From Podarcis pityusensis (lineage: Eukaryota): a stretch of DNA of 64,000 nt. The DNA is taken from assembly GCA_964106645.2 (NCBI GenBank), contig OZ067045.1, one strand, 5' to 3'. The translations under genes were made by a program, and so were the position numbers. This document shows positions 925 to 60,600 of the stretch, piece after piece (the first letter of the stretch is position 1; each line of letters opens with the position of its first letter). The notes beneath the pieces are model-generated. The model made no database searches. It was not told the origin of the DNA and worked only from the letters and a program-made list of their open reading frames with translations.

Positions 925-3900
925 CTAGAGGAGGAAAAAGAGACCAAAAATATAGATGTGAATTTGGGCATTAAAATTTAGGTATCAGAATACAGTAATT
1001 GCCAGGATGGGCCAGAAGCAAACAGCTTGCTGAACTCAGTCTTTGTTCCTAAACCACGGCTGACCAAATGCCCCTTCTGTATTTTCGTGTGGGGATTTTG
1101 GCCCCTGATGAAAATAAAACTTACGGTAAGTCATGACTTGACTTAAATCCCAGTGGGTTCAATGGAACCAAAGTTCAATTAATTAATTAAAAAATTTTTA
1201 AATACCCTCTTGGTTTATTTATTTTTTAAAAAAATACCCTTAAGCCTTAAAGCTGTTTGCAAAAAAGAAAACAATATACGGTAATCACCAGTAAGGACAA
1301 CCCCCAAAAAAGCTATTTAAAACATGCAAAGGTTAATTAAAATCAACAATAAACTGAAAACAGATTAAAAGACATGTCAACATTCTACATACCTGGGTAG
1401 ACTTGTCTAAGCAGAAATGTTTTAAGCAGGTGCTGAAAAGAATACAGTGAAGGCACCTGCCAGATGTCAATAGGCAGGGAGTTGCAAAGTTTGGAATTTA
1501 CAGCACAGTCCTACTTATGTCTACTGAAAAACAAGCCCTGCTGAGCTCAAATGGGGTTACTCCCAGTTAAGCGTGTCAATTAATCAGTTGGACTGAATCT
1601 TTCTCCCCCCCAAAAATAAAAAAATAAAACCAGAATATGCCAAAATGTTGATGATTTGACTGGGGACCATCTACTGTGCCCTAAAGCTGGAATGCCACTC
1701 CCAAACTGCTCACAATGAAATGATAAAAGATGCTTCTCAGTTTCTAACAAAACACAAATGCTGGATTTCAGCATTTGGACACTGAGAACTCTTTTGAGTT
1801 CTGAACAAGAAATTATGCAGACGCTAGATGTTAAAGTTTCCCAGACTGGCATTCAAGAAAAAGAAAAGTCAGCTGCACAAGTACGAATTAAGCCTTCCAT
1901 CCAGACCATTGCAGCTTTGCTGGGCAAAAGACGGGAACCTCACCTCACGAATCCAACCAACGTAAGCAGATACACGGGTGAAAACGGTCGGCTTCTTAGC
2001 GGTGTTGCAGCCCAACCCTGATCCAAAGCTCACGATGCCATGAACTTCCCAGTTGCTGCCGCCTTGGCAGTTCAAGGGTCCTCCAGAATCCCCCTGCCAG
2101 AAGAAAACAGGATGCATATACCTCTGTTTCCCTACTATGATCCAAGGGCTGGGCAAAATGGAAGTGGAGTCCTGGGTTGGCAAAGCTCACATTTGTGCTT
2201 GACAGGGTCCATAGGTCTGTGTGTCTGTTTTATGCAGGCTGAACATGTGGCTCTCCAGATGTTGCTGGACCACAACCCCACCCCCCATCATCCCTGAACA
2301 TTGGCCAGGCTGGCTGGGGATGATGGCAATTCAACAATATCTGGAGTGTTAGTGTGTGATGGAGGGGCACAGATTCCCCATCCCTGCCTTACAGCAGTTC
2401 CCAAACTATTTGAATTTCTGCCTGCAATGCAACTTGTAGGTAGGGCTTTCAGGGTTGGTGTTTGCACCCAACATTTCTCCCATATATTCTCTCTGTCCTT
2501 TGGCCCCATTCACCCCTGCCACTATCCAAATCCCCTTAAAAAGAATCCAACACACCTTGTTTCTCCATCCCTGCATATACACCATACGTTTAAAGCACAT
2601 TATAAATGCTGGAGAAAAGCAAATTCATTTCCTTCTCCTGCACTTCTAGATAATGCATGTTTTACTTTAACCACCAGAGGAAACTGGTTGTGTAGCATTC
2701 TAGCCAGCACTAGCTTGTAGCTTCTATGCCTATGTTAACTCCACCCCTAAAAGCTGAGCCATTTTGTTTGTTGCTCTCTCCATACAATATGTCTCTTATT
2801 TTCTCTGTCTCGTCTTCACACATTCCACAAACAGTTCCTGCATGAATAAAGCCTTTGAACTCCAGAAAGGGTAAGTGATTATTCCAATCTAATTCACCTA
2901 AGCTGCAAAGATCTGCTAACACAACTTCCTAAGTGGCTTGGCAAGGGTCACTTGGACTGAGTCGGGATTCAAGCAAGGACCGCTCTTTGTTTTCATGGAG
3001 GAAAATGTGCAAACTAATGAAACCACAAGCAACGTTCTTCAGAGTGAGAAAGTGGGGAAGGCTCTATGAGAAAGGAAGAGTTTGGGGAGACTTACGTTGC
3101 AACCTGAAACGACACCATCGCCTCCTGCGCACACCATTGTGGTCTTGACCATGGAGCCCCACCAGTCCCATTTGGTGCAAGTCTGATGATCTACCACAGG
3201 AAGCAAGGCCTGCTGAAGGTTGTCAGAGATGGGGCCATTGGCTACAGAGTGGAACAGACAGGAAAGTGGTAAGGAGTCTTTCCCAAAGAGTCAAAACCAC
3301 ATTTACACACAATCTGCTTGCCCCCGTATCCCACTTTGATCTGCCTTCTGGCCTTTGCCAGGCTACCTGAATTTATGAAATCAAAAGCTGGCAACTCTGC
3401 ATGAATATTGGGGAACCTTCTTTTGGACAGAAGGTCACATTACTCCTTGGGGTGCTGTTGGGGACCACATTTCAAAAGTGGGTGGGACTAGCCCCCCCCC
3501 CCCCGTGTGCAGGACCAGAAAGCCCACAATCATGCACCCTTAACACACAGACACACAGTCAACAGAGAGACACTTAAGAGTAGGGATGAGGAGGAACTTG
3601 GCTTGGTTTGGATTTTAATGCAAACTTATCTAATTTGCCTTTTCTGAATCAATAGGCAGACTGAAACACAGCTACTCTTCAGTATTCACACTTAATTGAA
3701 AGTTGTATTATAGTTCTCCAAACAAGCGGTGTGCAAAAAAAGTGTATCTTAGGAGAAAGTTTGCATAAAATGCATAGATTAGTAAAAACAACACACACAT
3801 ATATATTCTATTAGGGGAAATGGTTTGGTAAAAGAAATAAATGTGTATGTAAGGGGAAATTGCATCCAAGAATGTGTGTCTTAAGATAAATTCACTCTAA

Positions 3901-5516
3901 AATGCTGATGGTTTTCCATAGGTATTTAAAAAAAAAGAAATTTGCAAACTGATGCGGAAATGTGGAACACTGAACTTAAGACTGTAAAAATGAGAAACTG
4001 AGAGAATCTCAAACTGACAGATTCCTCCCATCTTCTTAAAGGCAGACAACACAGACACTGAACTGCAAAAAGTGAGCCTCCTTCTTAGTGTACAGAGAAT
4101 AATCCTTCGAGAAGTTCTGGGGGAGCTTTGGTACCTTGTATCCAATTGAAGTTGTACTCAGAGTAGACCCAATGAAGTGAATGAACATAAGTTAGTAGTG
4201 TTCATGAACTTCAATAGGTCTACTCTCAGTAGGACTGGCATTGGATGCAACCCCTAAGGTTTTTGTCCAGCTGTTTCCAGAATGCTCATGCCCAGGACAG
4301 GGAGCACCCAACTTACTCCAGAGTCGTCCCCATCCAGTGATGTAGCAGGGGTAATCCTGGGCTAGCACAGCGTCTGCGGCAGGGAGGCAAGAGGCCTGGA
4401 TTGTGTCACTGAACTGCACATGCTCAGCCAGTTTGAGGAGGGCAATGTCGTTGCTGAAAAGTGAAGCCGAGAGGGCACAGAGGTTTATGTTTTCATTTTC
4501 GAAAGCAGCTTTTCACCCAGAGGAGTCAAACTTAATATTCTCCAGCCTTCCCCAACCTCATGCCCTCCAGATGTTCGGACTGCAACTGCCATCAACCCAA
4601 GAGGGTGAAATCTGTCCTTCCCCTGGCAGCTTGCTGAATGATGGGGGGGGGGGAGAGAGAACGAGAGATTGAGAGACAGAAGAAGAGAGAGAGAACGGGG
4701 TGTCAGGAAAAAGGACAGGGAAGGGTGGCAAAAAGAGAGAGAAAAGGGGTGGAAGAAAGAGAGAAATGACTGGTACCACCTGACATGAGCGTATGCACCC
4801 CTGCAGCAGAATACCCACAGGAAATGCAATTCTTGTCAGGAGAAAGGTAAAGGGCCCCTGACCATTAGGTCCAGTTGTGGCCGACTTTGGGGTTGCGGCA
4901 CTCATCTCGCTTTACTGGCCTTGGGAGCCAGCGTACAGCTTCCGGGTCATGTGGCCAGCATGACTAAGCCGCTTCTGGCGAACCAGAGCAGTGCACGGAA
5001 TCGCCGTTTACCTTCCTGCCGGAGCGGTCCCTATTTATTTACTTGCACTTTGACGTGCTTTTGAACTGCTAGGTTGGCAGGAGCAAGGACTGAGCAACGG
5101 GAGCTCACCCCGTTGCGGGGATTCGAACCGCAGATCTTCTGATCGGCAAGTCCTAGGCTCTGTGGTTTAACCCACAGCGCCACCCGCATCCCATCAGGAG
5201 AAAAGGCACGCCATTTCTGCAACACTGCCTGCATTTGTTAAATCCACTTTTCAAGTTTTCTAAGCCAGCAGCCTGTCGGCATGCAGAGGGTCGCAAGGCC
5301 AGCTGGCTAGCCCCAGCTGGGTCGTCTCCTTCCAGCCGTCCCACTGCAAAGACCCATCGGCCTCTGCTCCAACGTAAATCAGCGACCCAGGCTTCAAATC
5401 CAGGGCACACTATATCAGCCCAGCAAACTGCGCACACAAAATAGGCGTGAGGCTTGTGGAAGCATACTACAACTACGGATTTATTAATCATAAACCAGGA
5501 CAAAGAAAGAAACATG

Positions 5517-5563
<47 letters not shown>

Positions 5564-8500
5564 TTTCTCAGAGAGACAGAGAATAGCAAAAGCTATACAC
5601 ACAACAGAAGTTCCCAGCAAGCTGTGCTGGAATGTAAACAGACATGTGACACGCAACAGTTCCATGTCTACTCCTTAAGGTGGAATGGAATATTCCCAAC
5701 ACAGCCATCATCGTATGTCTTAAGGCAGTGCTGGTAATTTGCCTGTCAGCAATGGCAAACCAATTTAACAGGTCATCCCGTAAGCAGACACCCCCCAAAA
5801 AACAACAGCAACACACTCAAGTTCCTATGTGATTTCTCTCACTAGCAAAACCAGATACCAGCAGGAATTATTTTGGCAGGATCAGGACTTGGGCAGCTGT
5901 TGCCTGACTTTCTGGATCCCACGTCAACTTACATGACCAAGAAGGAGTTCCACTTCTCGTGGACGATCAACTTTTCCACACCAACAGCCACAGAGCCGGC
6001 CTCCTCTACTTCCAGGTTTTGTTTGCCCAAAAGGACGCGGTAAGTCCGACTGGAGCTACAGACATAAGGAACAGGCAGTGATGTTGTGTGTGTATGAATA
6101 TCAAATGAAATGCAGATTCCTTGATGCCTTCCCAAAAGCTTCCTTCCTTTGTAAATTGAGTATTTTGTCTTCCTAGAAATGAGCAGGGTCTTTTGGCAGG
6201 GTGTGTGTCTGTGTGTTATTAATGGGCCAAGTTCAAGGTGTTAGCAGCTTAGGACTAGCTTACCTGCAAAATGCCTTTATTACCCAGTTGACTGCTTTGA
6301 TCCACGGAACTGGCACGGTTACAAGCACCATATAATATCTGTTCCACCTGATCAATCTTTTAGTGTGGCAGCACCTACACTGTGGAACTCCCTGCCTATT
6401 GACACCAGGCATGTTCCTTTGCTGTACTCTTCCCAGCACCTGCTTAAAACATTTTTGCTGAGACAAGCCTACCCAGCGATGAAGAATGTTGATGTGTGCT
6501 TTAATCTGTTTTTAGGTAAAGGTAAAAGGACCCCTGACCATTAGGTCCAGTCGTGACCGACTCTGGGGTTGCGGCGCTCATCTCGCTTTATTGGCTGAGG
6601 GAGCCGGCTTACAGCTTCCGGGTCATGTGGCCAGCAGGACTAAGCTACTTCTGGCAAACCAGAGCAGCGGACAGAAACGCTGTTTACCTTCCCGTCGGAG
6701 CGGTACCTATTTATCTACTTGCACTTTGACGTGCTTTTGAACTGCTAGGTTGGCAGGAGCAGGGACCAAGCAATGGGAGCTCACCCCGTCGTGGGGATTC
6801 GAACCACCGACCTTCTGATCGGCAAGTCCTAGGCTCTGTGGTTTAACCCACAGCACCACCCGCATCTAGTTTATAATTAATTTAAATTTTATGAATGTTT
6901 TAAATCATTGTTTTTAATCAAAACTTTATTGTCCCCCTCCCCCTTTGTAAACTGCTTTGAAGGTTGTTGGCTTTTTGTTTGTTTTTTACAATCATGGAGT
7001 GTATAAATTTTTATGAAATAAATAAAACCAACATTTTATTGAAAGACATTTGATTGTGTGTATCACCCCCCCTTTTGAACCCATGACCCTGAGATTAAGA
7101 GCCCCATGTTTGACCGAGTGAGCTATCCCAGATCTCCAACCCCATATTTGCAAAATTCTCATTAGCAGTGATGAGCTATGAATGAACCGCTTTTGGTTCT
7201 ATCGGACATGTCAAACAAAACGCTCTTGACCTGAGAGTGCAGCATGATTTTGTTGGTATTTTTTTCAGCTTGAACAGAGGGACCTTATAGACTCCTTCCA
7301 TCCAGAAAAATCCTGTGGCCATTCTGAACAAGTTCTGAAATTATGTCACAAAAAAGTGACCTCCTGCAGTTGGCTTGCCCATTCTGCATTTTTTTTAAAA
7401 AAAAAAGTCTAAAAGGTTCGGCTCAGGGTTCAGTGGAACACATTGATGTGAAACAAGGAAATTTGAATGGTAGCGTGGGTAGAGCTGCCATATGTCTGTG
7501 TTTTCCTGGACACATCTGGGAATCGGGCTGCAAAAAGTTGTTCAGGTGGGTTTTTGCTGAATCGGCAAAATGTCTGGGAAAACCTGTACATGTGGCAAGT
7601 AAGGCAGTTTTTTGTTTTTTAAATGCTTTTATAACCCCCACAAAAGTCCAAAAACTTAAATGGGGAGGGGGAGATCCCTCCCAAAAAATGCTCAACAACT
7701 TTGTCCAGATTTTCACTTTTGGGAATATGGCAACCCTAAGTGTGGGTGTTCCAGTATTGCTAGGTGACCGCTCCATTGCAACCTCAGGACCATTGCAGCC
7801 TGATGGGTTTCTGCAGTATCCTTGCTGTTGGTGGGGTGCTGCTTACCTGATGCAATGAGCAGCTGTCAAGACCCAGTTGGACTCAATCAGGGTTCCGCCA
7901 CATGTGTGAGCCCAGACGCCGTTCTTGTTGTACTGGAGGGAGACCTGAAAAGCAACCCCCCCCAAAGGCAGATGGCTGTTAGCTGTACGGGTCAAGAACA
8001 AATATTTTGATGTGTCGACCCGGTATCTTTGCCACAATATTGGCCCCACACCTTGACATTTCTTATATATCAATTCACTGCATTTATATCCCCACCTTTC
8101 CCCCCCAGTAATTCAAGGCAGCATGCCTGGTTCTGCAGCCTTCCCCATTTCATCCACACACCAACCCTGCGAGGTAGGTTGGGCTGAGAGGTAGTGACTG
8201 TCTCTCCTCCAAAGCTGGAAATGGGAGGCAGTGGCAACAGCCGACAAACAATTTCTCCCCTTCAGTATATAGATCCAGCCCACCGTGCTGGATCATCCAC
8301 TCTGCTAACAGGCCGTGATAATCTTCCTGTCCATGGCTGGGCCTGAGAACTTCAGAACCTGCAGCCGCTTCTACCACTTCTGGTGGCGAGATGTTCCGCA
8401 GGATGACACTGGGCCATTTCTCCCCTCCTAAAAAGCAAACGTGACGCTTGCACCACACGTGGGGGAAAAACATTGCGGATTTACCTGCCAAGGCCAGCTA

Positions 8501-9301
8501 TGGGGTCTGGCGTCCTCACCTCCGACAACACGGGAAATGTTGGGTGGATAAGCAGATTTGCCACAGCCGTGGGCTGGAAGAAGATAGCAGATGTGGGGGT
8601 GATGAAAGAGAAAATTAGGGAGAGGGAGGAGAGAGACAGAGACTGAGATGAGCATCTTGGGTACTACAAGGGAGCCAGAGCTGGACACATTGGTTTTGTC
8701 CATTATTGGTTTAATGAATCTGTTCATGGCTTTTTGGCAGAAGCATCCTTTTAAAAAAAGCTACCAGAGGCTATTTATTTCATTTATTTCTGAATTTATA
8801 TATTGCTTGATTGTAAACAACAACAACCTCAAAGTAGCTTACAAAAAGAATAAAAATGAAATCACCATTTAAAAAGCAGAACCATTTTAAACTGTCAACA
8901 AATAATAATTAAAACCAATGATAAGCTAAAGACCAGATTAAGCAGGTGTCAACGGTCTACATGTCTCGGTAGGTTTGCCTAAGCAAAACATTTTCAGCCA
9001 GCGCCGAAAAGAGTACAGTGAAAGCTGTTCCTTGATATCAATAGGTAGGGAGTTCCAAAGTTATGTTCATTTTGTGCAAATTTGTATGCTCTTGAACCAC
9101 GACGAAGCTCATCTTGGAGAGAGAGGCTACTTCACCAGAGACAAGAAACTGAATTCATTGCATTTCCAAAGAACTACTTTGGGCTGGGCTGAGTCTTGTA
9201 TCAATGAAAAGACGAATTGCATGCCAAACAGCCCCAACTTAACTGCACCAAAGACACTTACCGTAGCCCAGGATCAAAGCGATGAAAACCAACTTGAACA
9301 T
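907..9301 (-). CDS. CTRC: Chymotrypsin C (caldecrin), 8 coding exons, 266 aa: join(9262-9301,8485-8573,7847-7944,5933-6055,4317-4453,3096-3241,1944-2093,907-924)
   Basis: All junctions are GT-AG and in phase, 801 nt total. Signal peptide, CG...[16 protein letters not shown] activation site and triad motifs AAHC, NDIAL, GDSGG. CTRC-diagnostic segments [33 protein letters not shown] and VVDH. Syntenic with EFHD2 and FHAD1. Confidence 0.9.
1944..2093 (-). CDS. CTRC: CTRC exon 7 (GDSGGPLNC...[30 protein letters not shown], catalytic Ser195)
   Basis: GDSGGP motif, 150 nt, AG/GT borders. Confidence 0.93.
3096..3241 (-). CDS. CTRC: CTRC exon 6 ([49 protein letters not shown])
   Basis: 146 nt, AG/GT borders; absent from the ORF track, translated by hand. 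Confidence 0.93.
4136..4252. repeat. Short palindromic dispersed repeat (related copies near 12664-12776 and 57131-57246)
   Basis: TTGTATCCAA..TACTCAGAGTAGACCCA / TAGGTCTACTCTCAGTAGG..TTGGATGCAA. Confidence 0.6.
4317..4453 (-). CDS. CTRC: CTRC exon 5 ([12 protein letters not shown]...GWGRLW, catalytic Asp102)
   Basis: NDIAL motif, 137 nt, AG/GT borders. Confidence 0.93.
4843..5192 (-). mobile_element. Sauria SINE
   Basis: tRNA-like head with A/B boxes, (ACCTTT)n tail, TSD TCAGGAGAAA. Confidence 0.9.
5519..5559. repeat. (CT)n microsatellite
   Basis: Seen directly. Confidence 0.9.
5933..6055 (-). CDS. CTRC: CTRC exon 4 ([40 protein letters not shown])
   Basis: 123 nt, phase 2/2, AG/GT borders. 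Confidence 0.92.
6514..6866 (-). mobile_element. Sauria SINE
   Basis: Same family sequence and tail. Confidence 0.9.
7847..7944 (-). CDS. CTRC: CTRC exon 3 (VSLQY...[19 protein letters not shown], catalytic His57)
   Basis: TAAHC motif, 98 nt, AG/GT borders. Confidence 0.93.
8485..8573 (-). CDS. CTRC: CTRC exon 2 ([30 protein letters not shown])
   Basis: Propeptide Cys, trypsin activation site, AG/GT borders, 89 nt. Confidence 0.93.
9262..9301 (-). CDS. CTRC: CTRC exon 1 (signal peptide [13 protein letters not shown])
   Basis: ACCATG start, 40 nt, donor G|GTAAGT, TATAAA about 40 nt upstream. Confidence 0.88.
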
Positions 9302-10509: not shown

Positions 10510-10658
10510 CTTGTGAGACTATCTTGGCATGGCCTTTGGAAAGCAGGAGACAGAAGCATTCCAGTTGCCACGTCTCCCAGTGGCACACAGCCAATGGGGA
10601 CCTTTCTGTTGCTGACAGCATCCTTGGCTGGATCTGCCTCTGATAGACCCACCCAGAA

Positions 10659-10663
10659 TATAA
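10659..10663 (+). promoter_or_regulatory. CELA2A-like TATA box (TATAA)
   Basis: About 60 nt upstream of a GCCATG start. Confidence 0.55.
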
Positions 10664-10723: not shown

Positions 10724-10766
10724 ATGACTGGAGTCCTCTTCGCTGCTCTGGCGTTGGCCTCTGGGG
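10724..10766 (+). CDS. CELA2A: CELA2A-like exon 1 (signal peptide [14 protein letters not shown])
   Basis: GCCATG, hydrophobic stretch, phase-1 donor G|GTATGG. Confidence 0.8.
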
Positions 10767-13639
10767 GTATGGGTTGAACTCAGGATAAATAAGAGGATGG
10801 AATCGCCTGGTTCATAGCCACAGGGCATGAGGTGGCCGGCCCCCACTCCTTTAGATGGCTTTCAGAAAAAGAGTATCTACATTATGAATGAAGGAGAACT
10901 CAGCCAAGAGTTTACTGGCCAGGAGAGCAATAATAATAACAACAGAATTTCCACATGCAGAGGCATTCTCTCTCAGAGGTTCTGATACCAGGAACAAACC
11001 ATGGCCTTTGTCTCGTTCATTCAGGCTCCTTAGGGGCCTAGAGACATATCTCTGGGCAGATGGACCTCTGGTCAGAATCTGCAAAGCAAGTGGTGTGTTT
11101 GAATGGGAAGCCTGGAGAGAAGGTCAGACTAGACCGTCCTTGGCAGGCTGGGGAGGTGCTCTCAAAATGCAGCGCAGAGAGGGGGCAACTCAAAATCCAG
11201 CCCTGAGCGATTATAGTCTAGGAATGAAGAATGAGCACCAGCTGATAACAGCAGCAGAGTAGGAATTTTTTTACAGGCTGCTTATATGCTGTTCTACAGA
11301 GCTCCTGCAAGCCTCAAAACAAGATGCCCAATCGATTCTGCCAGGAGATATGGAAAACCTCTCTGGATGCTTTTCTGATATGGATCAGGCACTGAAAGCC
11401 ATTTTGTGGGCTCTGTGTGCAGATATGGTGGGATGGGAAGAAGTGGCAAAGCTACCTGTTCTGGCACCGGGAGCGGCGTACATCCAGGGGCGTGGCTGGT
11501 GTGCACCCCAAGGGGCGTGACACGCATCCCAGGAGGCGTGATGTGCCACCCGCGGGTGTGTGACACATGTGGGGGGGGGGTGCAAGGCAAGCGATGTCAC
11601 CCCCCGGGTGGCACCTGGGGTGGACTGCCCCTCCACCTTCGTCCACCAGTGATGGGGAGGAGTCTGCATTTCCAACTCACCCAGGCTGCATATGCAAAAT
11701 AGCTTTGAAGCACATTTAGAGCACATTTCCCTCCCTCAAAGAGTTACGGGCACTGTCGAGTTGCTGGGAATTGTAATTCCTTGAGGAGTGAACTGCTGTG
11801 CCTAGAATTCTGAGGGGGAGAACATGCTCTGAAGGTCTAGTAGTATGTACACAGCCTGTACAGACTCAGCAAAAACTCATTTTTTTCTCACACACTCTGA
11901 TTTCCAGTAGCTTAGTCACCACCACTCCCTGAAAGGGATGGTATTGGGTAGAGTCAAAGAGGGTTCTTACAACAATATAGGCATGCTAATTTGTAGCCTG
12001 AGCATTTTGCTCCCTGGAGAATCACCCATCTGTTGCACTGAACCTTCCTAAAGTGTCTGCACTGTGTCCTTTTTGCAGCCTTCAGTTGTGGGGTCCCGAG
12101 CTACAAGCCCAAAGCAAGCCGAATTGTCGGAGGAGAGGATGCCAATCCGAACAGCTGGCCCTGGCAGGTAAGAGGCTCTCTTGCAGTGTTTTTTGTACAA
12201 CTAATTTTCTTTCTGTTACGGGAAGTGTTTTTCTCCCTCTCTTATAGGCAGGGCTGGCCCACCTATGAGTCAAGGTAAGGCGACAACCTTGGGCGGCAAG
12301 ATCCATGGGGCCAGCAGACCCCAATGTACCGTAGATCTTTATTCCCTACAGGCGCCAAAATAACTTGGGCCAGCTCTGCTTGTAATGCTAGAACCCACAG
12401 ACATCCCATAAAGCCAAATGTTGGGAGATTCAGGACTGATGTAAGAAATTCCTTCTTGAGGCAGGGCACGGTTAATCTGTGGAACTCACTCCCACAGGAG
12501 GCAGTGATGCCCCTCAACGTGGGTGGATTTAAAAGAGGATGACTACCCATATTTATAATTCATTTCTGCATACTTATTGTTATTCTTGCTGATTTTATCT
12601 GTGCATGATTGATAATTATCGTGTGTGTGTGGTTCTTATTATTGCCTTGGATGGTTATATATGGGGTGTATCCAAGTCCTACTCAGAGGAGATTAACAGG
12701 TCTTAGTGGGTTTATGTTAGTCATACCATTAATTTCAATGGATCTGCTCTGGGTAAGACTAGCATTGGATGCAACCCATTATCTTTTGTACACCAATTAG
12801 AGATTTTAAAATTTATTATTAGCAGTTGTAATCGATCATTTCAGTAGTTTAAATTTTGTTTAGTATTCTGAGAAGGATTTTCAGGAGCAAACTCGTTTAG
12901 ACTCTGATTTGGATAGTGTGACGGGAGGTCCAGGGTCCAGGCTCATCCTGCCTATCATTCCCAGGCTTCCCTTCAATACTCTTCTTCCAGTGGGAAGTGG
13001 CATCACACATGCGGTGGGTCCCTCATCGCCACCAACTGGGTCATGACAGCCGCTCACTGTATCAGGTACGTCAACAGCCAGATGAAAACAACTGCTTTCA
13101 CGTACGACTCTGGGATCCTTTGCAAATTTTGCCTTTTCTGGACCAGGATAAACCTGATTGCTGTTATCCATGTTGCTAGGAAGCTCCAGGCTGGACTACT
13201 GCAATGTGCTCCACGTGGGGCTGCCCCTGAGGTTAGCCTGGAAGCTCCGCCTGGTGCAAATATAGAGGCTATTCACCCCAAATGGAAACAGATTTTGCAC
13301 CAGTGTGTCCATCTCTCTACTTTAGACATTTCCTAGTGTTGTCTCTCACACCAGTGTGACTAAGAAGTAGACACCAGGGTGGCACTATGCAGATGACAGG
13401 ATGAGGATGACGTGGGCCTGATTTTCACGGGGAGATCTGTCCTGAACAGACTGCAGTCTTAGGGTTGAGGTGCCTGTTTCCTATCTCTTTCTGCTCCTTA
13501 GCCCATAACCAAAAGTATGTGTAACTAAAATTATGACACCTTCTTCCTCTTAACCTCTCTACCCCAGTCCCTGGACAAGCTCCTTGGAGCAGGGAATCTT
13601 ATCCTCTGTTATCTGGAACAAACATTCACATTTGCAATC

Positions 13640-13675
<36 letters not shown>

Positions 13676-16600
13676 TCTGATTGCCCACTCCATTTCTTCA
13701 TTTTTTTTTATAGTTCTTCTCGGACCTATAGGGTCTACCTCGGAAAACACAGTCTCTCAGCCAGCGAGAAAGGATCAGTTGCTGTCTCCCCGGAAAAAAT
13801 CATCATTCACCCAAAGTGGGACTCAAGTAGCGTGTCCAGCGGGTAACTTAATAGCTTTTCATGAAACGAGTATAGAAGGAACTAGGATTCCCAACAGATT
13901 TGGCAGGGTGGAGACAGAAGGGATGAAATTGGGGGCATACTTACTTCTGGGAAAAAATATATATCCAGAATTGTTTTTCTTTTAGTACCAAAGCCAGAAT
14001 TTAGAGCTTGCTATGCCCCTTCCCACTATTTTGCCCCCTGAGTCAAGCTTGGGATTTATGAGCAAAAGTCACCATCAGCATTTATTTATCTACTCAGAGC
14101 ACCTGCTTGAATTGCGTAGGCTGCATTTGTTTGCTATGAAGCCGCCTTGTGGAGATGAATCTCAGAGCACCGCTCTGTTTGAAGGGCTGTCAAAGAAGTA
14201 CTGTAAAACAGGAGCACAAGAGGAGCCTTGCAGTTACCCATCAGCAGGCACGTGAACAGCAGGCACCCAGCTCACCTGGTCTTTCCCACCACAGTGGGAC
14301 ACACTGCATTTCTATTTGAATGGCAGTAATTTTAAATCTGCACCTGCACATCTAAATCAGGACATGCCTATTTTATACAAAAATGTGTCCTATTTCTCTT
14401 GGCTCGTTGGTGATGCATTCCATTTCTGCTTAAGTTATTATTTCTAAATGTGCATCTATAGGTAAAGGTAAAGGGACCCCTGACCATTAGGTCCAGTCGT
14501 GGCCAACTCTGGGGTTGCGGCACTCATCTCGCTTTACTGGCCGAGGGAGCCGGCGTACAGCTTCCGGGTCATGTGGCCAGCAGGACTAAGCCGCTTCTGG
14601 CGAACCAGAGCAGCGCACGGAAACGCCGTTTACCTTCCTGCCAGAGTGGTACCTATTTATCTACTTGCACTTTGATGTGCTTTCGAACTGCTAGGTTGGC
14701 AGGAGCAGGGACCGAGCAACGGGAGCTCACCCCGTCGCAGGGATTTGAACCGCCAACCTTCTGATCAGCAAGCCCTAGGCTCTGTGGTTTAATCCACAGC
14801 GCCACCCGCGTGCATCTACATGCATATAAATTAGCATGTGAAAATGTGCTTGCAGATCTCTGATTTCCTCTATTTTGGCACAGCGTCAGTGTGTTCCCCT
14901 ACCTTGAGTGATTTAGCGTATCCTTCTGGAGATGTTTGAGTCAAAGTGCTGGGGTTGTACTTAACATGGTGGTGGGATGTATCTTGTTTTGACTTTGTGG
15001 GAGATCTGGGATACATTGCATTACCATGAGCATAACACAGAGCACCCCATATCTCCCACAGTCAAAAACCAGAACCAGCTGTACCTGCTTTGGGTAAGCT
15101 GAGAATCACTCTGGTGACCTCCAAATGTTTTGGACAACTAACTCCCATCAGCCCCCTGGAGCACAGCCCTTTGAAGCTGGAGCTGATGGGAGATGTAGTC
15201 CAAAACGTCCAGAAGGCACCAAGTTGCAAAAGCTGCACCAGACACCCTGTCCTTTCTCTCTCTCCCTGCGGAAACCAGGAATGATATTGCGCTGATCAAA
15301 CTCTCCAAACACGTCACCCTGAGCGACAAGATCCAGTTGGTGTGTCTTCCAAAGGCCAACAGCATCTTAGCCTCCAACTCTCCCTGCTATGCTACAGGAT
15401 GGGGGAGGCTGCAAAGTAAGTAATGTTATGATTCCCCCCCCACACTGTTTGATGCACCAGATCCATCCTTCTGGGTTGCCACACAGACACGATTCCCTTT
15501 TGGCCCACAGCCAATGGCTTATTCAGCTCCAGTGGAAAAGCAGATAGATTTGGCCAGGAAATAAATGTCCCCACCACGAAGTTCAAAATTATTGAGCTAT
15601 GGAGGGGCAGGACACTAGCGCAAGGGGTGGGCAAACACTCCCCCATCACAAGGGCCATTACCATCGTAGGAAAACTTCTGGCCAATAGTAGGTGCAGTCA
15701 GAGGCAAATGAGGATGGAGCCATGGATGTACAGTGGTACCTCGGGTTACAGACGCTTCAGGTTACAGATGCTTCAGGTTACAGACTCCGCTAACTGAGAA
15801 ATAGTACTTTGTTTCAGGATGAGAACAGAAACCGTGCAGCGATGGCATGGCAGGCCCCATTAGCTGAAGTGGTACTCAGGTTAAGAACTATTTCAGGTTA
15901 AGAACGGACCTCCAGAACGAATTAAGTTCTTAACCCGAGGTACCACTGTATCTCCTACACAAAAGTCAGAGGTTTACACCCGGACACCCCTTTCTGGCCA
16001 GGCATGCAAGAGGCATGATTACAGTTCAAAGATACAGTGGTGCCTCTGCTTACGTACTTAATTTGTTCTGGAGGTCTGTTCTTAACCTGAAACTGTTCTT
16101 AACCTGAAGCACCACTTTAGCTAATGGGGCCTCCCACTGCTGCTGCACCACGGCCACGCAATTTCTGTTCTCATCCTGAAGCAAAGTTCTTAACCCGAAG
16201 TGCTATATTTCTGGGTTAGCGGAGTATGTAACCTGAAGCATATGTAACCCGAGGTACCACTGTATATCCCAGCCTGCCGAAAGCACTTGAGAAAGGCATG
16301 GATTGGACAGGGCCTTCAGGAATCAGCATGTGGAGAGCAGACTGCCCATTGGGTCTCTGGATGAGTCACTGCCCTGGGTTCACCCTGCTTTCCATTAGCG
16401 CCATTCAGAGGTGGGTCATTTGGCCTCATAATTTCACTGGCTGCGGTTCGATGGCGTTGATATACGGTCAATGAGAAAAGAGGGACAGACTGTGGTACAG
16501 TGGTACCTCGGGTTAAGTACTGAATTCGTTCTGGAGGTCCATTCTTAACCTGAAACTGTTCTTAACCTGAAGCACCACTTTAGCTAATGGGGCCTCCTGC

Positions 16601-18172
16601 CGCTGCCGCACCGCTGGAGCACGATTTCTGTTCTCATCCTGAAGCAAAGTTCTTAACCCGAGGTACTATTTCTGGGTTAGCGGAGTATGTAACCTGAAAC
16701 ATATGTAACCTGAAGCATATGTAACCCGAGGTACCAGTGTATATCCCAGCCTGCTGAAAGCACTTGAGAAAGGCATGGATTGGACAGGGCCTTCAGGAAT
16801 CAGCATGTGGAGAGCAGACTGAGCAGACACACAGCTATGGCTTGGGGAGAATCCCAAGAGCCTTCTGACCTGCCCCCTAGATCCCCCAGCCCTGCGGCAG
16901 TAACCCAAGATCGGTTCCAAGAACATCCTCCTTTGCCATCAGCAGCCCCTTGTGTTTGGTCTCTTCCAGCTGACGGTGCGTCCCCGGATATCCTGCAGCA
17001 GGGGCGCCTGCTCGTGGTGGATTACGCCACCTGCTCCAAGTCCAGCTGGTGGGGCAGCTCGGTGAAAAGCAGCATGGTCTGCCCGGGGGGCGACGGCGTG
17101 ATCTCCAGCTGCAAGGTGAGCACCTGGCACGCAGGTGCGGCAGCAGCGGCTGCCCGGTCCCTCAGCCAGAAGAAGCGCCGCATCTTGCAATCCAACTCAC
17201 CGGGTTTGCAAGGCGCAATTTTATCTTGGCGTTCGTTGCCACAAGGTTGAGTTTTCAAAGGCGGCGTGCTTCTGAATACCAGATGCTCGGAGGATGCTTG
17301 AGGGAGAAGGGTGGGTGGTTGCATCTAAACACCCCCCCAATTATCCAATATTGGAAGCAGAAGCAGGATACTGGGGTAGAGGACTTAGAGCCGTGCGTGG
17401 GCTTCCCTTTCAAAGCATTGCATTAAGGGCGCAGATCTGTGGACACAGCCCTGGGCTAGCCAGGATTTATGTTAAGAGGACACCTACTCGTCATCACCTT
17501 CTGTCTGGCTCTGTCAGACAGTTGTTGTTGTTTTATTTCTTTTTTTAAAAGTTGTTTTATTTCTTTTTTAAAAAAAAATTATTTTTTATTCATTTTTGCC
17601 TTTAACAAATATCATCACAAATAAATCACAATCATATAAACATAGGATTCTCTGAATCCCTGGACTTCCCTCCACTCTTCCATGGTTTCCATCGTTATTC
17701 TTTTCCAACTGCATCTTATAATGTTCTCCATCTTTTCTTAATACTTAATTCTCACCATAGTTCTAGCTGTGTTGCAAGTGTTGTTTTTTTAGAATCCTGT
17801 TTTTAATTGTTTACAGTGTTCTTTAAAGTAACTTAAAAAAATTTCCCCATTCTTTATTAAATTTGTTATCTTCTTGATATCTTCTTTATTTTGACCCCAG
17901 GTGCTCAGAAAAATCCTTCAAAATCTTTCTACAATTTCTACTTTAGTATTTTTATTTATTTACTTGATTTATGGAGGGCAGCTGTGCTCCCCCCACCTCC
18001 CTGACTATGCCCATGGGCACTGCCCCATTCTTCTTCCTCACATGGGGTGCCCTCTGGAGGCAGCCCTGTTTAGGTAAGTTTTTAATGTTTTTGTGTTTTT
18101 AATATTCTGTTTGGAGCTGCCCAGAGTGGCTGGGGAAACCCAGCCAGATGGGCGTGGTATAAATACAGTAAG

Positions 18173-18221
<49 letters not shown>

Positions 18222-19603
18222 AGCAGGGGTTCATGACCCAACCCTGGGAGATATAAGCGTCTTCCTTTTTTTGTAAATAGTTTTTATTAAGTTTTACAAT
18301 TTTATATTCGTCACAATCACTTTATCTCAAAAAGAAAAGAAAAAATATAATTCTCCAGTTGCCTCACTCCTCCCCTCACAACTTCCCCTCAACTTCCTCT
18401 TCTGGTTGTTTACATATTAACTTCTCCTGCTTGTTATATTGTACCTTAATATTACATTCTTGAATTGAATATTGTTCTATTCTTGTCATTTAATTATTTT
18501 CAAATTGCTTCATATGCTTTTTTATTTTCCAATTATTATGTCTTAATCTCTGTGTTTGTTTTCTTGATTGTGTTTACTCAAATCCTGCTAGTGAGTCCAC
18601 TTCTTTACAATATTTCTGTAAATACGATGTAAGTGATTCTGGGAGATATAAGCTTCAAGCATGCAGCAGCAAGGGCCATGTAGTTCAAGCAAGCCAAGGT
18701 TAAGCAGGGGGATTCAGGATAGGCCCAAAACGTGATCCAGCGGCAGCTGAGCATGGCTTGGCCCAAATTGCCTGGTAGGCCAGAGTCTCCCCACTTCTGT
18801 CCAAGAGCCTGTCTGGTGGCAGTGAATCAGGCTGGCTGCCACAAAGATGACCGGGCCTTAGCCGCTCGGAAAAAATCAATTTTGATTCCCCAGTCGTCTC
18901 CAAGGGGAAAACTCAGAGCATTCTTCCCAAAAAAGCAGCTCCATCATATTCTGTTTGGTTGTTTCCAGGGGGACTCGGGCGGCCCACTCAACTGCAAACC
19001 CTCCAGTGGAAAGTGGGAGGTTCACGGTATAGGCAGCTTTGTCTCCTCCAGCGGGTGCAACACCTACCGCAAACCCACTGTTTTCACACGGGTCTCTGCT
19101 TTCAACGACTGGATCGCTCAGGTGAGCTCTGCACTTTGAGGCGGCTCAACAACCCTTCCTGCTTAACAGGGGATGCGTTGCAGAGCCAGTGTGGCGCAGT
19201 GATTAGGGCATCTGCCTAGGAACCGGGAGAGACCAGGGTTCAAAACCCCACTCAGCCATGCAGCTCGCTGGCTCAGTCGCTGCCTCTTGGCCTAACCTAC
19301 CTAACAGGATTGTTGTCAGGATGAAATGGGGGGTAGGGTGGAACTATCCAGGCCACCCTGAGCTCTTTGGAAGAAAGGTGGGCTAGAGAGGTAATAAATT
19401 AGTAGTAAACAATGCTCATTGTCATCCTGGTTTGGGTTTCTGGATTTTGTACGTGTTGAGTTTGCGATAGCTTTTAGCTCCCTCCGTTCCTTTGGTTGAG
19501 AGAGCTGTCCCTTCATTACCAAGAGACACCCTCATATTAAAGAAATAATAATAATAATAATAATTTTCCTTTGCATTTTCTGTAGATGATGGCGAAATAT
19601 TAA
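10724..19603 (+). CDS. CELA2A: Chymotrypsin-like elastase 2A-like, 8 coding exons, 271 aa: join(10724-10766,12079-12167,12965-13065,13714-13842,15279-15415,16970-17115,18969-19121,19586-19603)
   Basis: All junctions are GT-AG and in phase, 816 nt, triad intact. Exon 6 ([15 protein letters not shown]...WWGSSVK...GGDGVISSC) and exon 5 (SDKIQL.CLP, GWGRLQT) match recalled CELA2A. May be a paralog rather than the strict ortholog. Confidence 0.8.
12079..12167 (+). CDS. CELA2A: CELA2A-like exon 2 ([30 protein letters not shown])
   Basis: 89 nt, activation site, AG/GT borders. Confidence 0.92.
12965..13065 (+). CDS. CELA2A: CELA2A-like exon 3 ([33 protein letters not shown])
   Basis: His57 motif, 101 nt, AG/GT borders. 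Confidence 0.92.
13640..13670. repeat. (ATT)n microsatellite
   Basis: Seen directly. Confidence 0.9.
13714..13842 (+). CDS. CELA2A: CELA2A-like exon 4 ([42 protein letters not shown])
   Basis: 129 nt, phase 2/2, AG/GT borders. Confidence 0.92.
14460..14810 (-). mobile_element. Sauria SINE
   Basis: Same family; TSD GTGCATCTA. Confidence 0.9.
15279..15415 (+). CDS. CELA2A: CELA2A-like exon 5 ([24 protein letters not shown]...GWGRLQ)
   Basis: Asp102 motif, 137 nt, AG/GT borders. Confidence 0.92.
15731..15948. mobile_element. Tc1/mariner MITE, same family, opposite orientation
   Basis: TIRs plus TA TSD. Confidence 0.85.
16035..16262. mobile_element. Tc1/mariner MITE, same family
   Basis: TIRs plus TA TSD. 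Confidence 0.85.
16498..16739. mobile_element. Tc1/mariner MITE, same family (apparently chimeric copy)
   Basis: TIRs plus TA; 5' part nearly identical to the copy at 104. Confidence 0.85.
16970..17115 (+). CDS. CELA2A: CELA2A-like exon 6 ([49 protein letters not shown])
   Basis: 146 nt, AG/GT borders. Confidence 0.92.
18172..18221. repeat. (GTT)n microsatellite
   Basis: Seen directly. Confidence 0.9.
18969..19121 (+). CDS. CELA2A: CELA2A-like exon 7 ([51 protein letters not shown])
   Basis: Ser195 motif, 153 nt, AG/GT borders. Confidence 0.92.
19185..19400 (+). mobile_element. tRNA-derived SINE (Squam3/L2-tail-like)
   Basis: A box TGGCGCAGTG, B box GGTTCAAAACC, body CTAACCTACCT..CAGGATTGTTGT. 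Confidence 0.55.
19586..19603 (+). CDS. CELA2A: CELA2A-like exon 8 coding part (MMAKY*)
   Basis: Polypyrimidine tract plus TAG acceptor, 18 nt, AATAAA at 19667. Confidence 0.82.
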   Translation: MMAKY

Positions 19604-19666: not shown

Positions 19667-19672
19667 AATAAA
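19667..19672 (+). terminator. CELA2A-like polyadenylation signal AATAAA
   Basis: About 65 nt after the stop codon. Confidence 0.75.
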
Positions 19673-57645: not shown

Positions 57646-60600
57646 CTGCAGACAGAGAAGGGAAGATACAGAGCAAAACGCATGTGTGTGCTTCTACATT
57701 TATACTTTAGCAAAAACGGTGAGTCAAATGCCTGTCAAAAACCAGCTTGCAGGGATAGGGGCAAAGAGCAACCGAGTAGGATTGAATTCTCCACAAAGGG
57801 TAACTTGAAGGGTTTCAGTCCTGCTTTCTGCAAGCTCTCAGCACACCAGTGACTTCCCTGTGGATGTACTCAAACCAAGCAGGGTTAAACTCTCTGCCCA
57901 TCATCAGATGAACTCAGGGATGGGCGTGCCAGCAGGCTCCTCCCGGGGAAAATGCTCACACACCCAAACCAAGCAGGACCAAAATCCTTGCCTATCAGAT
58001 GATGTGCGAGGAGCTCGATCTTGCTGCTGCATTCCTACCTGCCCCACACTGGATATCACATATGACGCCAGTTGTGGGGCAAGTGGTGTGGTTTGGGGAA
58101 AACAGCCTGGTGGGCCAAGAACACACAAAACAAATTTGAAGGCTTTCTGAAAAAGCAAGCAGGTTTCCACCAATGATATCCCTGCTCTTCAGGACCTCCC
58201 CCTCCCCACTTATATTATCCAACTATCTTCATTTATGTCTTGTCGGCTAAGAGGCACTCTTACTACACTGGCCGGGCAATTTCCTACCTTCCTATCCCTG
58301 AATTTCAGAGTGCAGGCGTAACATGACGAAATCTCACTCTTCCTCTCCTCTAACTGATTCTAGGGTGGAAACAGCAAGGAACAAATGGCAAATCTCTCTC
58401 TGGCAAAGCAACAGAGCTAAGAAACAATGCAGCCTTTGCTTTTCTCCAAGCTGGGTTGGTTGAGTGCGCTGGAATAAGTCTCTGTGTTTTCAGTTAAACT
58501 GGCAGGGATGTAAGTCAGTGAAGGGCTGCAGCCTAAAGCAATTAGGAATGTACACTTGTGTATATAATTGTCACCAAACTCAGTTTGCAAGTCAAGCCCC
58601 AGCAACCTGCTGCCTTTAATAAGAGAGAGAAAGATGCCCTAACAATACTCCATCTCTAGCATCGGGGATTAGGACAGAACTCGATGGCGTGTGACTATGG
58701 GTTTCTCCAAGTACAGGGATTTCTCATTCCTTGCTCCTAAGTGATGCCTCCAAGTCTGTTCACCCTACAGAAATGCAGAAAGAGAAAGGCTGCTTCCATA
58801 CTAAGGTCTCCTTAATGCTGTGGAGGAGATGCTTTTCAGCAGTCAAGCTGAACGTGGAACGAAAATGGCACTTAAGATAGTGCCAATAGATCTGGAAATG
58901 TCTATCCTGGTGCCCAAGATGCTTCTATCATGTTCGTTCACAAGTAAGTTCCATTCTGCAAAGGTTGCCTGCAACTTAAAAGCTTTCCCTGCTTGCGTTG
59001 TTACTCATACCCTGGTTCAGTGCAGCCACAGGATTATTGATCAATCCCCCCCCCAATTAGCAAGTTTAACAGCATGAAGGAAATAAATAAGGAGAGCAGA
59101 CCAATAAAACCACTCTCCAGGGAACAGGAGCTCATTAATTAAGCAGCAACTAGTGCTGAACAGGAAGCAATTACAGGGGGCGAAGCTGAAAGAAGGAAGT
59201 TTCTAATTAGAGGAACAGAAAGTCCTGAAGGCCCTCAGCAGCACTTTCCCAGTCAACTGGCACTGCAGTTACATTTTAAAAGGAGGGTGGTCATCGCAGA
59301 TCAGGAGAGAGACACAGAATGCAACATATTGGTGATGGCATTGTATGACTTTTCTGCAAAAAATGACTGAAAGGGGGGTAGTAATTTCAGCTGAAACAGC
59401 TAGTGTAGACAAGGCAGTTCTGATTGTAGCAGAGTGCTTTACATGCAGAAGGTCCCAAGCTCAACCCCTGACATTTTCAGGTAGGGCTAGGACAGAGCCC
59501 TGTCTGACACTTTGGACAGCTGCTGCCAGCTAAGGCAGACAATACAGAACTAGATGGACACATAATATGATTTGGCATACAATAAGCTTCCTTATTGGGA
59601 CATGGGTGGCACTGTGGGTTAAACCACAGAGGCTAGGACCTGCCGATCAGAAGGTTGGTGGTTCGAATCCCCGCGACGGGGTGAGCTCCTGTTGCTTGGT
59701 CGCCGCTCCTGCCAACCTAGCAGTTCGAAAGCACGTCAAAGTGCAAGTAGATAAATGGGTACTGCTCCAGTAGGAAGGTAAACGGTGTTTCCGTGCACTG
59801 CTCTGGTTCGCCAGAAATGGCTTAGTCATGCTGGCCACATGACCCGGAAGCTGTACGCCGGCTCCCTCGGCCAATAAAGTGAGATGAACGCCGAAACCCC
59901 AGAGTCAGTCACGACTGGACCTAATGGTCAGGGGTCCCTTTACCTTTAAGCTTCCTATATCCTACAGTGTGCTGCTGAATGGTAAGACAATCTGTTGCAT
60001 AGTGGCCTTAGCTGGCATTGTCTTGCTTAGTGGGCAGGTGGTCTACAGACTGGGCAGAGCAACCCACATGCCCCTGAAACTGAAAATCAGATGGCGGCTC
60101 GTGCAACCAGGAGGATCCCCAATCCTGATACTCGTGGCCATGGAAGACAAGCAGACCAGGAGAGTCTTCCTCTTCCCAAAACTCACCCTTACATTTAAAC
60201 ACTAGCCTGGCAGCCACAGGCGACCAGGGGTAGCATGTGGGTGAGCACACAGAGTTCCATGCAGAAGAGTGAGAGGCTGGCAGGAGAATGTTCCATCCCT
60301 CCTCTACAGCCAATGTGGAAAACAAGTGGGATGCTAGGGGAAAAAAGCCCCTTCCTTGGCACCCAAGAGACACAGCTCTCCATTACCCTTTCTGCTAGCC
60401 CCTAGCAGGGAAGTAGTATCTTTCCTGCAGTCTAGGAACTTGATGGGGGCGGGCTTACTTACAAGGCTGCTTGAACTAGCTTCTGTGCAAAGGGTCCCTA
60501 TGTGAAAAAGACTTTCTCTGTCCCTTCTGCCTCCTGCCTCCTACCCCCAATTGACTGAATCCTGTTCTCCTTTCGCCCCGTGAATGAAGCTAAGCTGCAT

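Follow-up and report, generated by a model that had tools for sequence, protein, structure and literature searches.

An inverted CELA2 duplicate with a Val216/Thr226 pocket in Podarcis pityusensis, a lizard genome in which CELA1 is a pseudogene

We analysed a 64,000-nucleotide stretch of the genome of the lizard Podarcis pityusensis (assembly GCA_964106645.2, contig OZ067045.1; hereafter the window), which carries a second, inverted copy of the elastase gene CELA2. Its predicted protein combines a CELA2 scaffold with the residues Val216 and Thr226 in the S1 pocket. On balance, this intact copy appears to encode a trypsin-activated, basic protease for small and branched aliphatic residues that stands in for the broken CELA1 gene. 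We consider this the best reading because CELA1 is gone, the CELA3 proteins of the genome are acidic, and the copy is the sole basic Val216/Thr226 elastase found. The gene is a real and conserved CELA2 duplicate that has likely been neofunctionalised, and it is paired with the loss of CELA1.

Results

The window copy comprises eight exons on the plus strand (10724-19603), with AG/GT at all junctions and a single open frame of 271 codons. The initial annotation had confined it to 16970..19121; exons 6 and 7 do lie there, and the gene as a whole extends further on both sides. The ordinary CELA2A gene (Gly216/Ser226) is found beyond CTRC, on the opposite strand, ∼26 kb upstream of the window copy, and a search of the genome with exon 4 DNA found no third CELA2 copy, only these two. 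In mammals the gene order is FHAD1-EFHD2-CTRC-CELA2. Since it is the ordinary copy that occupies this order, the window copy is the inverted duplicate, situated between CTRC and the gene that we take to be EFHD2. Its features are the following.

10562..10578, plus strand: E-box and TC-box pair, similar to pancreatic PTF1 sites, 162 bases before the ATG; weak and suggestive only, and its form is not kept in the ordinary copy
10657..10663, plus strand: TATA-like box, its letters identical in the ordinary CELA2A copy
10724..10766, plus strand: coding part of exon 1, signal peptide
12079..12167, plus strand: exon 2, with Cys1, the propeptide end Arg15 (12120-12122) and the mature N-terminus Ile16
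12965..13065, plus strand: exon 3, with catalytic His57 (13055-13057) and a one-residue Ser insertion that is not in the compared relatives
13714..13842, plus strand: exon 4, 99-loop
15279..15415, plus strand: exon 5, with catalytic Asp102 (15283-15285) and Cys122
16970..17115, plus strand: exon 6, with Ser189, Ser190, Lys192 (17113-17115) and Pro183 (17083-17085)
18969..19121, plus strand: exon 7, with catalytic Ser195 (18975-18977) and Gly213 (19032-19034)
19035..19100, plus strand: 22-codon stretch Ser214-Ala233 within exon 7, with Val216 (19041-43), Ser218 (19050-52), Thr221A (19062-64) and Thr226 (19077-79)
19586..19603, plus strand: coding part of exon 8 and stop, with AATAAA at 19667-19672

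The encoded protein keeps the catalytic triad, Gly193, Asp194, Ile16, the Arg15 site and ten cysteines, including the Cys1-Cys122 pair. The sequence features of an active S1A protease (triad, Asp194, Ile16 after a basic propeptide residue, trypsin fold) are all present. Full-length database searches and fold prediction were run on the P. muralis ortholog, which differs from the window protein at six residues. This ortholog matches the Pfam Trypsin family (1.6e-69), and its model, of high confidence (predicted local distance difference test score, pLDDT, 89.9), has 1bru, a Gly216/Ser226 elastase, as its nearest fold (root-mean-square deviation 1.2). In the PDB search a CELA2-type match (E 1.6e-114) precedes CELA1 (2.5e-88). 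The window protein is likely a serine protease of the S1A chymotrypsin fold and is predicted to be active. Two candidate RNA runs, their type being guessed, each have a single contig over exon 7 (at depths of 7 and 2), one of which extends 57 bases into intron 6; exon 6 is covered by neither of two such runs.

Residue numbering based on alignments to solved elastases agrees with the initial annotation in placing Val216 at 19041-19043 (GTC) and Thr226 at 19077-19079 (ACT), and the motifs that it quoted from exons 5, 6 and 7 are all present. It overlooked three further residues: Gly213, Lys192 and Pro183. The residues Gly213/Val216/Ser218/Thr221A/Thr226 are identical in the copies of P. muralis, P. 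raffonei and P. lilfordi, so the pocket state is due neither to chance nor to error. Pro183 occurs in this assembly only. It may be an assembly error or a rare variant, because the residue is Ala in the three named Podarcis species and in two further close relatives; position 17083 of the window is C, beside a run of G, and is G in contigs of two close relatives.

The possibility that Val216/Thr226 is simply the normal state of sauropsid CELA2A is contradicted by a survey of relatives. The motif filter passed 96 of 108 matches, the 12 excluded being seven Gly/Ser proteins, two Gly/Thr proteins and three fish proteins with Val/Thr. In the 96 CELA2-type relatives residue 216 is Gly (90), Thr (3), Arg (2) or Val (1), and residue 226 is Ser (94) or Phe (2), never Thr. 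Neither Ser218 nor Thr221A occurs in any of the 96, and Lys192 occurs in one. The open Gly216/Ser226 pocket of the CELA2A type is absent from the window copy. The exceptions at residue 216 are primate CELA2B (three proteins with Thr, of which two also have Gly213), turtle proteins with Arg216/Phe226/Trp193, and one gecko copy with Val; cluster look-ups added two further gecko second copies with Val216/Thr226. The Val216/Thr226 state is abnormal for CELA2A, yet recurrent among CELA2 duplicates. In the turtle proteins with Trp193, Arg216 and Phe226 both the oxyanion hole and the S1 pocket appear blocked, and these are probably pseudo-enzymes.

Trees, promoter and intron homology, the locus and the PDB matches agree that the window copy is a CELA2 duplicate, as initially proposed. 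The exon trees were built from 48 of 68 rows. In the tree of exons 2-6 the copy falls within CELA2 (99/95). The exon 7 protein tree assigns it to the CELA2/CTRC side (95/94); there it is not part of the Gly216 group and stands next to the gecko duplicates, the branching between them being unresolved. Neither exons 2-6 nor exon 7 group with CELA3. The DNA of exon 7 is 80% identical to that of the ordinary CELA2A, versus 70-71% for the two CELA3 genes. The flanks of exon 7 (60 bases on each side) match those of the ordinary copy at 48/64 and 41/61 positions (z 10.1 and 8.1), with z of 0 to 2.7 against CELA3 or CTRC. The initial annotation had left the origin of the pocket between convergence and an exchange of exon 7 with CELA3. 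Exchange of the whole exon is excluded by the DNA identity, the intron flanks and the tree, all of which favour CELA2A, and convergence is the better-supported origin.

The pocket loop in exon 7 is matched better by lizard CELA1 than by CELA3, a point that the initial annotation missed. Over residues 214-233, CELA1 of eight out of ten squamates and of the tuatara agrees with the window copy at 21 of 22 positions (skink 20, monitor 19), compared with 18 for the ordinary copy, 18 for CELA3a and 16 for CELA3b. CELA2A and CELA1 do not differ from each other at 18 of the positions, so the signal consists of four sites that changed from CELA2A: Val216, Ser218 and Thr226 carry the CELA1 residue, and Thr221A matches neither. 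The window copy thus has a CELA1 trait, the Val216/Thr226 pocket on a basic chain. It lacks the marks of CELA1 orthology, which are overall similarity, a GALNT6-adjacent locus and the absence of the Cys1-Cys122 pair.

CELA1 itself is a pseudogene in this genome. Its remnant lies downstream of a GalNAc-transferase exon (G000 C2:8918680-8921423) and consists of exon 4, which carries a frameshift, and a truncated exon 5 in which Trp141 has become Arg. Three pieces of the remnant match CELA1 best (13/19, 12/18 and 26/30 residues, versus at most 5, 6 and 18 for the other elastases of the genome). In the remnant, 11 of 67 residues are not seen in ten intact squamate CELA1 proteins, which gives a crude estimate of ∼0.08 changes per site since the onset of decay. 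No trace of exons 2, 3, 6 and 7 was detected by tblastn, profile search or blastn in the 100 kb around the remnant. There was no intact CELA1 exon 7 among the genome candidates, all 93 of which were scored, and none was found with a frog query (140 of 257 candidates scored) or a skink query (144 of 309 scored), the latter having led to the remnant on C2. Human CELA1 adjoins GALNT6. The expected neighbour BIN2 was not seen on C2 by a BAR-domain search, so that the synteny of the remnant is established from the GalNAc-transferase side only.

A loss of CELA1 in all squamates is excluded, since the gene is intact in geckos, a skink, a cordylid, iguanians, an anguid and a monitor, and also in the tuatara. 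No lacertid CELA1 was found in the best 120 of 1082 matches or in nine clusters, which is suggestive only; the search of 50% clusters returned mostly multi-domain proteins and contributed one CELA1 protein.

The mature chain of the window protein (242 amino acids) has 16 Lys and 6 Arg, or 22 basic residues, against 10 Asp and 4 Glu, or 14 acidic ones, as counted by the initial annotation, and its isoelectric point (pI) is 9.04. The accompanying claim of a switch to a cationic character does not hold: the ordinary copy is equally basic (pI over exons 2-7 of 9.02, versus 8.96 for the window copy, both with a net charge of +6.4), and squamate CELA2A proteins are mostly basic (pI 8.1-9.3), as is squamate CELA1 (pI 8.1-8.6). 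The other paralogs, CTRC and both CELA3 genes, encode acidic proteins (pI 5.2-5.8). CELA3 is represented by two tandem genes 13.5 Mb away (G000 C8:79340770-79379386, at 79.35 and 79.38 Mb), both with Val216/Thr226 and both acidic (CELA3a 5.3, CELA3b 5.2). With CELA1 gone and both CELA3 proteins acidic, no basic pancreatic elastase with Val216/Thr226 other than the window copy was found in the genome.

The duplicate is conserved within Podarcis, and its divergence from the ordinary copy is uneven. The orthologs of P. raffonei, P. muralis and P. lilfordi, recorded as 'CELA2A', differ at 3-6 of 271 residues. Between the window copy and the ordinary copy dN is 0.115 and dS 0.58, a ratio of about 0.2. 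For exons 2-7 in turn, differences at fourfold-degenerate sites amount to 1/9, 1/16, 6/16, 10/15, 4/21 and 14/22 (heterogeneity p 0.0002), and the flanks of the two copies mismatch at 6-9% around intron 1 and are unalignable around exon 5. Exon 7 has diverged beyond its own intron flanks (14/22 versus 31/160, p 4e-5; the flank mismatch is biased low by gap placement). We read the uneven divergence as the probable trace of an old duplication followed by patchy conversion. A selective barrier to conversion at the pocket codons would be expected to leave such an excess in exon 7.

In protein trees the copy stands outside the group of lacertid and Rhineura CELA2A. A shared origin with the gecko duplicates was rejected by the approximately unbiased (AU) test on proteins without the six pocket columns (p 0.002), a result that is not decisive under concerted evolution: the gecko duplicates group with gecko CELA2A, and conversion within geckos would also give a rejected clade with Podarcis.

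Discussion

The proposed replacement of CELA1 would work as follows. Trypsin cleaves after Arg15, and Ile16 pairs with Asp194. Val216 and Thr226 narrow the S1 pocket and exclude aromatic P1 residues, so Leu/Met/Phe may have given way to Ala/Val/Ile as the preferred P1 residues. With Gly213 and Ser190 the pocket is probably roomier than that of porcine elastase 1; given these two residues, the restriction to Ala/Val suggested by the initial annotation seems too narrow, and the exact preference is uncertain. The basic surface would allow elastin digestion, which is poor in the acidic CELA3 enzymes: human CELA3, with the same pocket, digests elastin poorly, probably because it is acidic, and CELA2A digests it (PMC7366634). 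The pocket changes would have arisen by point mutation in the old duplicate. Later conversion with the ordinary copy may have homogenised the 5' part and exon 6, with exons 5 and 7 staying apart. The copy would either have made CELA1 dispensable or have replaced it, in either order.

Several observations weigh against this scenario. Heteronotia, Eublepharis and Paroedura keep an intact CELA1 and yet have Val216 duplicates of CELA2, two of the three with Thr226; loss of CELA1 was thus not required for the pocket change. Nor is it evident why a replacement should have been needed, as elastin is in humans already a substrate of ordinary CELA2A (PMC7366634). The lizard genome contains the two CELA3 genes with Val216/Thr226. 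Primate CELA2B, which also has Gly213 and a branched residue 216, has been called inactive (PMC5187948). Within the loop only Ser218 is specifically CELA1-like, Val216 and Thr226 recurring in CELA3, in fish elastase-3-like proteins and in gecko copies. The protein tree leaves the age of the duplicate unfixed (a lacertid or lacertoid origin is not rejected, with AU p 0.27-0.28), and no ortholog from Lacerta or Zootoca was among the matches listed, though the duplicate looks older than those genera.

It is possible, though rather unlikely, that the copy encodes an active enzyme whose aliphatic pocket (Val/Ile/Leu) has shifted and yet is broad, and represents one more change at residue 216 in a CELA2 gene, unrelated to the loss of CELA1. 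Duplicates of CELA2 with an altered residue 216 are known from geckos (Val), primates (Thr) and turtles (Arg), those of geckos coexisting with intact CELA1, and the window copy has Gly213/Ser190 where CELA1 has Thr213/Gly190. Residue 216 alone does not fix the P1 preference, as a rabbit chymase with Thr216 is a strict Leu-ase (PMC6941018). An unrelated change would, however, leave unaccounted for the fact that three of the four loop changes reach the lizard CELA1 state, among them Ser218, which none of the 96 CELA2 relatives has, and that this CELA1-like loop occurs in the one genome shown here without CELA1.

We find it unlikely that the CELA1-like loop is a transplant rather than a convergence. 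In that case a short ectopic conversion would have carried 66 bases of CELA1, prior to its decay, into the CELA2 duplicate, which is on another chromosome. What the lost gene did would then live on in a paralog of another subfamily, and selection would since then have shielded the exon from conversion by CELA2A. No site within 214-233 sides with CELA2A against lizard CELA1, exon 7 is CELA2-like on either side of this stretch, and the change from Leu218 to Ser (CTT versus AGC) takes at least two amino-acid-changing steps. Against a transplant, multi-step changes are also present outside the stretch (22 codons), Thr221A matches neither CELA1 nor CELA2A, and fourfold divergence is equal within the stretch and in the rest of exon 7 (7/11 each). 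Moreover, CELA1 and the CELA2 copy are on different contigs and only ∼55% alike as proteins (taking porcine CELA1), and the 100 kb surrounding the remnant no longer contain exon 7 of the would-be donor.

An equally doubtful alternative is that the duplicate is poorly active or inactive, like human CELA2B, and has a non-catalytic role or decays slowly. The window copy and primate CELA2B have in common Ile212-Gly213 and a branched residue 216; the window copy has the unusual Lys192 (in 1 of 96 relatives) and, in this assembly, Pro183; and the turtle duplicates with Arg216/Phe226/Trp193 indicate that silenced CELA2 copies recur. On the other side, the window copy keeps the triad, Asp194, Gly193, Ile16 and all cysteines, whereas CELA2B starts with Met-Leu and has Leu215; dN/dS is about 0.2, with a protein difference of 1-2% among the four Podarcis copies; Pro183 gives way to Ala in the five relatives mentioned above; and decay is unlikely to recreate a working CELA1 loop.

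Acquisition of exon 7, or of a patch of it, from a CELA3 gene is highly improbable: a permutation test does find a weak cluster shared with CELA3b from Ile212 to Val227 (p 0.004-0.03 for all sites and 0.02-0.07 for synonymous sites, 12 tests, uncorrected), and a CELA3-type third letter is seen at Thr226 in two runs of one organism, but there is no cluster for CELA3a synonymous sites or for CTRC, Tyr222-Arg223 in the middle of the patch (TAC CGC) is that of the ordinary copy and differs from both CELA3 genes, one of the five synonymous CELA3b matches (19040) is recent, relatives from four runs having the CELA2A letter, and a whole-exon exchange is contradicted as described above.

With the ordinary CELA2A (and 1bru) the window copy shares the exon layout, Cys1-Cys122, Arg15, the ancestry of exons 2-6, basic charge, and promoter and intron homology, and the two lizard proteins are 80% identical. 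It differs in position, being inverted on the far side of CTRC, and in having Gly213, Val216, Ser218, Thr221A, Thr226 and Lys192 where CELA2A has Val, Gly, Leu, Tyr, Ser and Asn, respectively. It resembles lepidosaur CELA1 (and porcine elastase, 1est) in residues 214-233, at 21/22, in Val216/Thr226 and in its basic pI; it differs in overall sequence (∼55% identity), in locus, in the residues Ser190/Lys192/Gly213 (Gly/Gln/Thr in CELA1) and in the Cys1-Cys122 pair, which CELA1 does not have. CELA3, or proteinase E (1pyt_C), has the same Val216/Thr226 and is the best PDB match of exon 7 taken alone, but is acidic (pI 5.2-5.3), 56-58% identical overall, distinct at residues 217A, 218, 222 and 223, and without intron homology.

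Primate CELA2B is likewise a duplicate of CELA2A; it lies at the CTRC locus and shares with the window copy Ile212-Gly213 and a branched residue 216. It has Thr216, Leu215, Ser226 and Met16-Leu17, is of separate origin and is reported to be inactive (PMC5187948). The gecko duplicates (Eublepharis XP_054858004, Paroedura XP_077168177, Heteronotia XP_060115633) are basic and have Val216, with Thr226 in two of three, as in the window copy. They differ from it in Ala213, in Asn192, in Gly190 (two of three) and in the retention of CELA1. In the Heteronotia duplicate Ser replaces Gly197, and the gecko duplicates converge on a pocket like that of CELA3 and fish elastase-3-like proteins. Rodent alpha-chymases with a natural change of Gly216 to Val became elastases (PMC6941018). 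These enzymes (mMCP-5/rMCP-5 type) provide a parallel, in that one of two duplicates switched its pocket, with the differences that they belong to the mast-cell locus, also have Val190, and had their switch shown biochemically (PMC6941018).

We found no report of the pocket of this gene or of CELA1 loss in lacertids in the literature open without subscription. CELA1 is kept in 39 of 40 mammals (bioRxiv 10.1101/138776, where the word 'lizard' is absent), PMC9834058 reports convergence for mammalian CELA1 only, and PMC7914634 adds nothing on residue 213. RefSeq already lists the gene, as a second 'CELA2A', and the names seen carry no comment on the pocket. Pancreatic CELA1 is silenced in humans (PMC5187948). 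If the proposed replacement is true, the lizard would be a case independent of the human silencing, reached by another route, and a natural replay of elastase-1 replacement, with an elastase-1-type pocket placed on an elastase-2 scaffold in a vertebrate without CELA1. For the human silencing, compensation by CELA3 duplication was reportedly proposed by Boros et al. in 2017. The two lizard enzymes, 80% identical and equally basic with six differences in the pocket area, could separate the effect of the pocket from that of charge in elastin digestion, and geckos, which have both genes, offer a control. The reach of the case is modest, as switches at residue 216 of the pocket are already known in the protease family.

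Neighbouring genes and other elastase-like sequences

CTRC and the window copy are arranged head to head, with their start codons 1.4 kb apart. The last coding exon of CTRC was not located.

1944..9301, minus strand: CTRC, exons 1-7 located, start codon at 9301; Gly216/Thr226, pI 5.8

Further exons on the minus strand at about 25700-50644 (start codon at 50644) are presumably those of EFHD2, and those at 60600-62200, also on the minus strand, presumably belong to FHAD1.

Tandem pairs of CELA3 also appear fused in database models of a gecko and the king cobra. A degraded CELA3-like exon 7 fragment at G000 C11:19125571-19125678 has lost Cys220 and the catalytic motif. A further elastase-like gene at G000 C5:77918220-77922827 has Gly216/Thr226 and a fused exon 4-5, and is distant from CELA1, 2, 3 and CTRC (50-63% identity in pieces). 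Intron 5 of the window copy contains a near-duplicate of ∼300 bases, at about 16030-16370 and 16500-16820 of the window, made up of a common repeat and adjacent sequence.

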